Of a stretch of 288 bases of DNA, positions 1-288 are shown in pieces. Positions within the stretch are counted from its first letter, which is position 1, and each line of letters opens with the position of its first letter. Source of the stretch: Escherichia coli (GTDB lineage Bacteria; Pseudomonadota; Gammaproteobacteria; Enterobacterales; Enterobacteriaceae); NCBI RefSeq assembly GCF_003334785.1, contig NZ_QOWV01000090.1; one strand, 5' to 3'. The notes under the pieces are model-generated. The model was not told where the DNA came from. It did no database searches and saw only the letters and a list, made by a program, of their open reading frames with translations. A program made the translations under genes and the position numbers.

Positions 1-76
1 TGGTGGGTCGTGCAGGATTCGAACCTGCGACCAATTGATTAAAAGTCAACTGCTCTACCAACTGAGCTAACGACCC
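1..76 (-). tRNA. tRNA-Lys (anticodon UUU), complete, with genomically encoded 3' CCA
   Basis: Reverse complement of 1-76 reads GGGTCGTTAGCTCAGTTGGTAGAGCAGTTGACTTTTAATCAATTGGTCGCAGGTTCGAATCCTGCACGACCCACCA. It folds as a canonical cloverleaf: 7-bp acceptor stem GGGTCGT/ACGACCC, D-stem GCTC/GAGC, anticodon stem GTTGA/TCAAT with loop CTTTTAA (anticodon TTT, + strand 41-43 = aaa), T-stem GCAGG/CCTGC with T-loop TTCGAAT, then CCA. From memory this matches the E. coli-type tRNA-Lys encoded by the lysT/lysW/lysY/lysZ/lysQ/lysV family. Which paralog this is cannot be assigned from the window, so no symbol is given. Confidence 0.95.
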
Positions 77-110
77 ATACGGGTGTTACCTGAAAGATTT
101 TTACTCGGGG

Positions 111-127
111 CCAATCTTTAAGATTGG
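111..127. repeat. Perfect 17-nt palindrome ccaatctt-t-aagattgg, overlapping the CCA end of the tRNA fragment
   Basis: 111-118 ccaatctt is the exact reverse complement of 120-127 aagattgg, centred on t119. The right arm's tgg (125-127) is the CCA of the 18-nt fragment on the minus strand. An alternative partner for 113-119 (aatcttt) exists at 93-99 (aaagatt), giving a mutually exclusive 7-bp stem. Confidence 0.7.
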
Positions 128-142
128 TGGGTCGTGCAGGAT
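125..142 (-). repeat. 18-nt exact copy of the tRNA-Lys 3' end (3' half of T-stem, 3' acceptor strand and CCA); truncated tRNA fragment
   Basis: + strand 125-142 tggtgggtcgtgcaggat is identical to 1-18 and 223-240. Identity stops abruptly at 143: the fragment continues gactcg where the gene has tcgaac. The flanking sequence shows no further tRNA similarity (about 5 of 15 matches in the adjacent positions by eye). Confidence 0.85.
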
Positions 143-156
143 GACTCGCTTCGCTC

Positions 157-183
157 GCCCTACGGGCCGTTGCTGGCGCAACG
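157..183. repeat. Two adjacent short GC-rich hairpins: gccc-tac-gggc (157-167) and cgttgc-tggc-gcaacg (168-183)
   Basis: 157-160 gccc pairs with 164-167 gggc (3-nt loop). 168-173 cgttgc pairs with 178-183 gcaacg (4-nt loop tggc). Neither is followed by a T/U-run on either strand. Confidence 0.5.
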
Positions 184-196
184 TTATCCTTCACGC

Positions 197-219
197 TTAA
201 CATCTGAGTTTGATGTTAA
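197..219. repeat. Inverted repeat: 8-bp AT-rich stem ttaacatc/gatgttaa with a 7-nt loop, 3 nt from the 3' end of the upstream tRNA-Lys
   Basis: 197-204 ttaacatc is the reverse complement of 212-219 gatgttaa; the loop is 205-211 tgagttt. On the minus-strand transcript it follows the tRNA CCA after only GUU. No U-tract follows it, so it is not an intrinsic terminator. Confidence 0.6.
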
Positions 220-222
220 AAC

Positions 223-288
223 TGGTGGGTCGTGCAGGATTCGAACCTGCGACCAATTGATTAAAAGTCAACTGCTCTACCAACTGAG
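223..288 (-). tRNA. tRNA-Lys (anticodon UUU), partial: tRNA positions 11-76 present, 5'-most 10 nt lie beyond the window end
   Basis: + strand 223-288 is identical base-for-base to + strand 1-66. The anticodon TTT lies at + strand 263-265 (aaa). The missing 5' end would occupy 289-298 if the gene is intact. Confidence 0.93.

Follow-up and report, generated by a model that had tools for sequence, protein, structure and literature searches.

Structure directly 3' of an encoded CCA can affect the maturation of the tRNA that precedes it. In the secG-leuU and metT operons, Rho-independent terminator stems are located 1-4 nt past the CCA and have to be removed before efficient RNase P maturation of the upstream tRNA, which orders the processing events (Mohanty and Kushner, PMC2241853). 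In vivo, RNase P is inhibited by a structured terminator placed immediately 3' of the CCA, for a reason described as "not clear" (PMC2241853). RNase P RNA contacts the RCCA end through its L15 loop; in the E. coli RNA, G293 and G292 pair with C74 and C75, and loss of this contact is lethal (PMC1874595). Studies of the lysT operon have determined that it is processed by RNase P from 3' to 5' and that RNase E is nearly dispensable; the lys pre-tRNAs retain the entire spacer as a trailer, whose removal falls to RNase II and PNPase, followed by RNase T (PMC4176162). Agrawal et al. (2014) described this 3' to 5' order, with little help from RNase E, and gave no structural reason for it.

Two other described elements are relevant here. 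The RtT element (RF00391) is known from the tyrT operon repeats (rttR) and includes a tRNA 3' end with CCA. 3'ETS-leuZ, an annotated sRNA of MG1655, is a spacer or trailer sequence of a tRNA operon that is conserved and selected although it lies outside the tRNA. Lalaouna et al. are said to have described it in 2015 as an sRNA sponge that acts in trans.

The element discussed here is a small hairpin at the start of the native lysY 3' trailer in the lysT operon. It is similar to the secG-leuU and metT terminators in being a structure directly 3' of an encoded CCA. Unlike them, it is internal to the operon, is not a terminator, and is short and AU-rich. It also pairs the CCA and A73 themselves, whereas the terminator stems lie beside the CCA, and for the lysY hairpin we infer an effect on RNase P. 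The 3' arm of the hairpin carries 5'-GGU-3', which makes the same three pairs with C75, C74 and A73 that L15 makes. Unlike the L15 pairing, that of the trailer forms in cis within one molecule and would therefore be a competitor of RNase P and not an aid to it. The U-A73 pair is absent in K-12, where the sequence is UGGC, but in 38 of 50 sequences the base that follows UGG is paired with A73. The 98 nt upstream of the hairpin belong to the RtT family and, like RtT, end in a tRNA 3' end with CCA. The CCA in the 5' arm is the last three positions of the RtT model, but the hairpin does not belong to RtT, and no comparable compact hairpin is seen in the trailers of tyrT and tyrV (2 bp for tyrV; 6 bp for tyrT, spanning 26 nt with a 14-nt loop). 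Unlike 3'ETS-leuZ, the lysY hairpin is conserved as a structure and in cis, and no trans role is indicated. No description of the hairpin was found in the literature searched, which left out the study of trailer co-evolution by Li et al. (2005, RNA 11:567).

The lysY-lysZ spacer and its RtT-like module

The window, meaning the whole stretch of 288 nt that was analysed, is the lysY-lysZ spacer of the E. coli K-12 lysT tRNA operon, and it runs from inside lysY to the end of lysZ. The minus strand corresponds to the transcript, therefore the features below are on that strand. The identity to E. coli K-12 derivatives is 100% over all 288 nt, and the sequence is present in all 5,426 complete E. coli genomes. 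The 3' 66 nt of lysY, a tRNA-Lys(UUU) that is cut by the window edge, occupy 223-288 (Rfam tRNA, 54.7 bits; annotated as tRNA-Lys in the K-12 derivatives that match at 100%), and Rfam places this 5'-truncated tRNA copy at 288..226. Its genuine CCA is at 225..223. At the other end, lysZ is a complete tRNA-Lys(UUU) at 1-76. It is the one complete tRNA found in the window by ARAGORN (76..1), and it scores 79.2 bits with Rfam.

Directly after the genuine lysY CCA is an RtT-like module of 98 nt (125-222) that ends in a pseudo tRNA 3' end. The module opens with a hairpin, UUAACAUC-N7-GAUGUUAA (197-219), which is an inverted repeat that appears in the minimum-free-energy fold. This is the structure that follows the genuine lysY CCA in K-12; it differs from the trailer hairpin, starting at +4 and leaving out the CCA. 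The same stems are found after lysW and after lysY with different 7-nt loops, GAAGACA and AAACUCA respectively (2277-2299 and 2581-2603 in locus L001), and strain FORC_043 has the stem variant UUAGCAUC. The pseudo tRNA-Lys 3' end, AUCCUGCACGACCCACCA (125-142), is a direct repeat of the genuine 3' end at 223-240 and consists of the T-stem 3' strand, the acceptor 3' strand, A73 and CCA. Neither ARAGORN nor the Rfam tRNA model finds a cloverleaf for a tRNA gene or pseudogene at 125-142; the fragment is a 3' end only. Rfam reports the RtT element ending exactly at 125, with 47.6 bits in the window, where the match begins inside lysY (288..125), and 54.4 bits in the full locus, against a gathering threshold of 45. 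RtT membership thus applies to the upstream module. The palindrome is outside it, since the model ends at the CCA and shares 3 of its 17 nt.

The native trailer begins where the module ends. Its first 14 nt and the preceding CCA form the hairpin at 111-127, with arms CCAAUCU and AGAUUGG around the loop UAA, as indicated by the inverted repeat, folding and covariation among orthologues. Downstream is a trailer box, CCGAGUAAAAAUCUUUCAGG (89-108), which is conserved in sequence across genera, is AU-rich and single-stranded or weakly folded, and contains AAUCUUU at 93-99. RNase E may cut in the box. In some Enterobacter, Kosakonia and Siccibacter, UCUUCGAAGUC takes the place of CCGAGUAAAAAUCUUUCAGG. 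The lysZ 5' leader, UAACACCCGUAU (77-88), carries an ACCC that is complementary to the tRNA 5' end GGGU (73-76), as seen with RNAalifold and in folds. This ACCC is invariant and mimics an acceptor 3' strand. RNAalifold calls a 4-bp ACCC/GGGU leader hairpin in 39 of 39 trailers, without covariation, and in some folds the ACCC pairs instead with the 5' end of the upstream tRNA. On the antisense (+) strand, two terminator-like sites were noted at 80-102 and 168-193 where 0.3 were expected; the sequence of one is CGGGU-GUU-ACCUG with AAAGAUUUUU after it. Both probably mirror structures and A-rich runs of the sense strand.

Why does the K-12 hairpin adjoin a tRNA fragment? A comparison of nine E. 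coli strains provides the answer. The module lengthens the lysY-lysZ spacer from 48 to 146 nt, and the other spacers also have long and short forms (135 or 35 nt for lysT-valT, 149 or 51 for lysW-valZ, 132 or 33 for lysZ-lysQ). Each long spacer has one RtT match, and a further match follows lysQ, which makes five in the operon; the copy after lysQ is likewise present or absent among strains. A cassette of about 98-100 nt accounts for every difference between long and short forms. It starts right after a genuine CCA and ends in the 18-nt copy AUCCUGCACGACCCACCA, so it is flanked by 18-nt direct repeats, and recombination between these can add or remove it. The lysY-lysZ spacer of UTI89, WP5-S18 and HS-02 consists of only the 48 nt found downstream of the pseudo-CCA in K-12, and there the same hairpin directly abuts the genuine tRNA at its acceptor stem. 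The K-12 hairpin therefore adjoins a tRNA fragment because a polymorphic 98-nt module has been inserted upstream of the native trailer. The earlier note had treated the position at the exact edge of a tRNA-derived repeat as special. That idea falls away, as the hairpin belongs to the native trailer and exists without the module, and the edge reflects where the cassette is placed.

The cassettes vary independently at all five positions of the lysT operon, both among E. coli strains and across genera (1984-2083, 2273-2370, 2577-2674, 2799-2897 and 3037-3162 in L001, with strain variation in L002-L009). They fall into two sequence types, one shared by lysT-valT and lysZ-lysQ and the other by lysW-valZ and lysY-lysZ. 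In the PGAP record the copy after lysQ (3037-3162) carries the note "processed from tyrT transcript", a family label that is wrong here, and the four internal RtT-like modules have no annotation.

Conservation of the CCA hairpin

The earlier note described a 17-nt palindrome at 111-127 that takes in the CCA of the tRNA fragment, and this is borne out. The palindrome reads CCAATCTTTAAGATTGG on the plus strand, with perfect 8-nt arms around one central base. The transcript of the same positions is CCAAUCUUAAAGAUUGG, whose first three bases are the CCA that ends the 18-nt copy of the tRNA-Lys 3' end (142..125). As RNA it folds into 7 bp with a 3-nt loop at -7.1 kcal/mol, and its pairs have probabilities of 0.98-0.996 in the ensemble of the whole window. 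What appears as a palindrome in the DNA is an RNA hairpin in the transcript, located where the native lysY 3' trailer starts. Among dinucleotide shuffles, 1.2% for the window and 0.7% for the spacer contain a perfect palindrome whose arms are 8 nt or longer and whose loop is 3 nt or shorter, irrespective of whether it starts exactly at the CCA. Chance in AT-rich sequence, which had also been put forward, is excluded. Scans found no Rho-independent terminator on the minus strand: two of the seven pairs of the stem are G-C and GGCCCCGAG follows it, so there is neither a GC-rich stem nor a U tract. A dispersed palindromic repeat of the REP or BIME kind was considered and rejected, as a trailer query finds a median of 1 place per genome, with a maximum of 3, in 5330 E. 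coli genomes.

Three alleles of the hairpin are found in E. coli. Allele A, CCAAUCUUAAAGAUUGG, is the perfect palindrome (-7.1 kcal/mol) and is carried by about 46% of genomes. In allele B, CCAAUUUUAAAGAUUGG (about 34%), a C-G pair has become U.G, which breaks the DNA palindrome and keeps the RNA pair (-5.7 kcal/mol). Allele C, CCAAUUUUAAACAUUGG (about 20%), has a U/C mismatch in the middle of the stem and forms a 6-bp stem from A73 with a 7-nt loop (-3.8 kcal/mol). These shares are approximate and were reconciled from two 34-mer haplotype searches and four fetched loci (L091-L094); the identity bands of the allele C query include about 1420 partial-length alignments at 100%, and they were used only after this reconciliation. 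Judged from these alleles, the perfect symmetry is unconstrained, yet a stem that contains the CCA is always kept in E. coli. Point mutations are common in the pseudo-acceptor (128-134), with CGACACACCA in about 1440 genomes and CGAGCCACCA in about 870, and the CCA and hairpin are intact beside them (L002, L005, L091-L094). The acceptor mimic thus seems to be less constrained than the CCA hairpin.

To compare species, CpoB was used as the neighbouring anchor, 80 species loci were fetched and their tRNA arrays were mapped. The spacer in the orthologous arrangement, Val-Lys-spacer-Lys, is bimodal in length, mainly 41-53 or 137-161 nt. Some arrays vary, with a tRNA-Lys(CUU) in that of MAG UBA5654 and a tRNA-Val(GAC) in that of Intestinirhabdus, and the E. 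albertii array has no Lys-Lys junction (L030, L074, L019). When a hairpin is counted if it has at least 5 bp within 32 nt and includes C75 and A76, it is found in 54 of 60 unique trailers, compared to 16.8 +/- 3.4 in shuffled sequences (maximum 28 in 2000 runs), and is missing in six. It is kept after the genuine tRNA in 23 of 24 trailers and after pseudo ends in 31 of 36, the latter including old modules in Kosakonia. Across about 19 genera there are 31 distinct 5' arms, with a conserved core of 5-7 bp whose register is always tied to the CCA. The inner stems are AAUCUU/AAGAUU in Escherichia, UC/GA in Salmonella and Kluyvera, CUU/AAG in Enterobacter and Siccibacter, AAUU/AAUU in Citrobacter and Klebsiella, CCACCAA/UUGGUGG in Citrobacter, and C/G in Kosakonia. 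With the register fixed by the CCA and the first UGG alone, the first inner pair forms in 96% of sequences (A-U 28, C-G 11, U-A 6, G.U 2, U.G 1), the second in 89% and the third in 77%. Where the pseudo end is mutated to AACCCA (L066), the partner is the matching UGGGU.

Covariation was scored in two ways, both of which ignore kinship among the sequences. In the fixed register the score is 0.311 against 0.107 +/- 0.024 for shuffled sequences, none of 500 shuffles reaches it, and slid registers give at most 0.094. A MAFFT alignment that includes the sequences without a hairpin gives 0.203 against 0.093 +/- 0.013, again with 0 of 500 shuffles and at most 0.075 for slid registers. RNAalifold on the plain MAFFT alignment of 39 trailers called the ACCC/GGGU leader hairpin and missed the CCA hairpin, which is weak and variable in length, and pairs were therefore counted explicitly on the same alignment. 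Among interior cells that are not Watson-Crick, G.U outnumbers A.C by 10:1, which is weak evidence for action at the RNA level. A further strand test, in which stems could be extended with either G.U or A.C, lengthened 36 stems with A.C and 13 with G.U; the flanks are rich in C and A, which confounds the comparison, and the test was discarded for that reason. These comparisons indicate that the hairpin is kept by compensatory substitution across the Enterobacteriaceae and is a conserved cis-acting RNA structure. Compensatory base changes in orthologous spacers, which the earlier note had suggested looking for, are present, and free uncompensated decay is not seen. Of the readings offered there, an RNA-processing determinant best fits the comparative data, because the orthologous substitutions are compensated and not free. 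As a whole, the interpretation in that note is partly supported.

The hairpin is not found after all tRNAs. Among the trailer classes of the same operons, hairpins that include the CCA occur in 22 of 23 genuine lysY-type short spacers (6.7 expected from shuffles), 48 of 78 RtT module 5' ends (17.8), 18 of 36 Lys-to-Val short spacers (7.7), 10 of 36 spacers of the lysZ-lysQ type (3.6) and 8 of 37 on the terminator side (8.5). Among 38 other tRNAs of K-12 MG1655, from ten operons, there is no excess (9 against 8.6 +/- 2.4 expected). The valU operon likewise shows 3' to 5' processing by RNase P and fits partly only; the valU hairpin adjoins the CCA but does not take it in, and no hairpin is seen in the valX trailer. 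A rule for all trailers is rejected on these grounds, and by this sequence comparison the CCA hairpin is a feature of the tRNA-Lys trailers of the lysT operon and not of trailers in general. The terminators of lysV in the valU operon and lysQ in the lysT operon, with at least about 40 nt beyond them, are almost identical (L090 630-700, L001 3007-3075); paralogy between the 3' ends of the two operons extends past the tRNA. In the serV-argVYZQ operon (L101, MG1655), the argV, argZ and argQ trailers share the start UAUUCUNCG, diverge slightly, and then have in common UUCAGC(A/G)AUGAAGGUA. The argV-argY and argZ-argQ spacers are both 198 nt, and this may be another tRNA operon that bears repeats.

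Possible roles of the hairpin

When the hairpin follows the genuine tRNA, it folds from A73 directly against the acceptor stem with pair probabilities of 0.84-0.98. Its 5' arm consists of (A73)-C74-C75-A76 and the first trailer bases, and its 3' arm ends in UGG(U). The GGU of the trailer would pair with A73, C74 and C75, the nucleotides that are contacted by L15 of RNase P RNA. Kirsebom and Svard (1994) reportedly described a U294-R73 pair as a further part of the contact between RNase P RNA and its substrate. The hairpin may mask the RCCA end and act as an intramolecular competitor for the RNase P docking site. The usual RNase E cleavage region, the AU-rich bases that immediately follow the CCA, would be buried as well. 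RNase P and RNase E would then act poorly on the upstream tRNA, or on the RtT-like pseudo-substrate, until RNase P cuts at the next tRNA. RNase II or PNPase would then remove the trailer and release the upstream unit for maturation. Such gating would help to explain why the operon is processed independently of RNase E and from 3' to 5', one tRNA at a time. A conserved hairpin that masks RCCA and gates processing is the best explanation at present, and it is given an even chance of being correct. The stronger proposal is a tentative one, held to be more probably wrong than right: that the trailers carry a dedicated cis-acting "anti-RCCA" element, in which GGU mimics the L15 loop, pairs with A73-C74-C75 and holds both the upstream tRNA and RtT-like pseudo-substrates resistant to RNase P and RNase E until the downstream cut.

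Several observations argue against gating as a full account. Conservation of the hairpin is just as high after pseudo ends, where there is no tRNA that requires RNase P. The hairpin next to the genuine lysY CCA in K-12 excludes that CCA, and the valU operon conforms only in part. The hairpin is also weak (-3.8 to -7.1 kcal/mol in folds) and has a mid-stem mismatch in about 20% of E. coli genomes, so any block would be partial or kinetic. The literature search found no mapped RNA end, RNase E site or RNase P kinetics for the lysY-lysZ spacer hairpin. The hairpin and the NCCG that follows it were also considered as a minihelix substrate for RNase P, and this was rejected, as cleavage would remove the tRNA's own ACCA.

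Other roles have to be weighed against gating. The hairpin could be a barrier to exonucleases that defines a 3' end, with RNase II or PNPase stalling at it after RNase P has cut at lysZ. The outcome would be a kinetic pause that protects the CCA or, in K-12, a defined or stabilised 3' end for an RtT-like RNA ending in CCA. The published pathway leaves the whole spacer as a trailer for RNase II and PNPase, then RNase T, RtT RNA from the tyrT operon has been annotated as a processed product, and conservation after pseudo and genuine ends alike suits a function independent of RNase P. But the stem is short, AU-rich and weak, and PNPase removes even a terminator without the RhlB helicase (PMC2811032). 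The literature search found no stable spacer RNA or RtT-like RNA from the lysT operon, and a pure barrier needs neither inclusion of the CCA nor a conserved UGGU; this role is considered possible but rather unlikely. It is doubtful that the stem-loop serves as a cofactor for RNase E, filling its duplex-binding groove so that cleavage falls in the single-stranded AU-rich box GAGUAAAAAUCUUUC next to it. Allosteric activation of the enzyme by a neighbouring tRNA can be taken over by simple stem-loops (PMC9841416), RNase E cuts within the long lysT spacers when RNase P is inactive, and the hairpin and downstream box are lost together in the exceptional species. The role of RNase E in this operon is minor when RNase P is active, however, the flanking tRNAs already provide structured elements, and the use of the CCA by the stem is left unexplained. 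The chance is small that the hairpin has no role in processing, and is either a folding insulator between identical tandem tRNAs or a symmetry produced without selection by templated correction of a quasi-palindrome. The coexistence of three E. coli alleles of unequal strength at high frequency would agree with this, as would the AT-rich composition of the region and the six of 60 trailers that lack the hairpin. Its persistence in about 19 genera with 31 arms, always in register with the CCA, and the lack of excess in 38 other tRNA trailers of similar composition speak against it, and a mutational mechanism does not account for the anchoring at C74-C75 or the UGGU motif.

The earlier note had also raised a protein-binding or recombination site and a pair of mutually exclusive hairpins, and neither is upheld. 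Despite the perfect dyad symmetry in K-12 and the position at the junction of a polymorphic repeat, it is very improbable that the palindrome acts at the DNA level, as an operator for a dimeric protein or as the recombination site that created the tRNA-derived repeat. The 31 distinct 5' arms keep their complementarity and the inner pairs switch among A-U, C-G and U-A, which is the opposite of what a sequence-specific site requires: complementarity is conserved and half-site sequence is not. The DNA palindrome is broken in about 54% of E. coli genomes. The 18-nt direct repeat is sufficient to account for gain and loss of the module, and the hairpin is outside the module and exists without it. 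A scan found no promoter-like site near the palindrome and no internal promoter.

The two hairpins were thought to arise because the left arm of the palindrome could pair with 93-99 instead. The complementarity is real, as 113-119 is the exact complement of 93-99, but in the RNA it is the 3' arm and loop (119..113) that would pair with the downstream 99..93. A longer inverted repeat joins 90-99 and 113-122 with a 90% match. The exact 7-nt complementarity in K-12 could suggest a two-state switch in which the 127..111 hairpin and the 119..113 with 99..93 pairing regulate processing. This alternative pairing is worth -3.0 kcal/mol (-4.7 when extended) versus -7.1 for the hairpin, its pair probability is 0.003, and its conservation is confined to Escherichia plus a 6-nt version in one Kluyvera, where the specific AAAGAU(U):(A)AUCUUU pairing is found. 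Complementarity between the hairpin and downstream sequence is at least 6 nt in 11 of 54 unique trailers and 5 nt or less in 43. The box CCGAGUAAAAAUCUUUCAGG is conserved across genera whatever the hairpin sequence is, and the alternative complementarity arises because the K-12 arm happens to resemble this independently conserved box. A switch or attenuator was rejected, since the pairings are neither both conserved nor energetically comparable, and it is now scarcely credible.

Significance for processing of the lysT operon

The anatomy of the RtT-like repeats of the lysT operon is clarified by this work: they are cassettes of 98-100 nt that are gained and lost by recombination within an 18-nt tRNA 3' end. 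For the hairpin itself, a gating function is plausible and specific, and it is one that we infer. If the proposed mechanism is wrong, what remains is a conserved RNA structure, small and well supported, in an operon that has been studied intensively. A conserved, covarying hairpin on the nucleotides that RNase P contacts offers a concrete hypothesis both for the order of processing and for the inhibition of RNase P by nearby structure, and three natural E. coli alleles of graded strength exist. If it is true, the "anti-RCCA" element would be the physical basis for 3' to 5' processing, one tRNA at a time, and for inhibition of RNase P by structure adjacent to the CCA.
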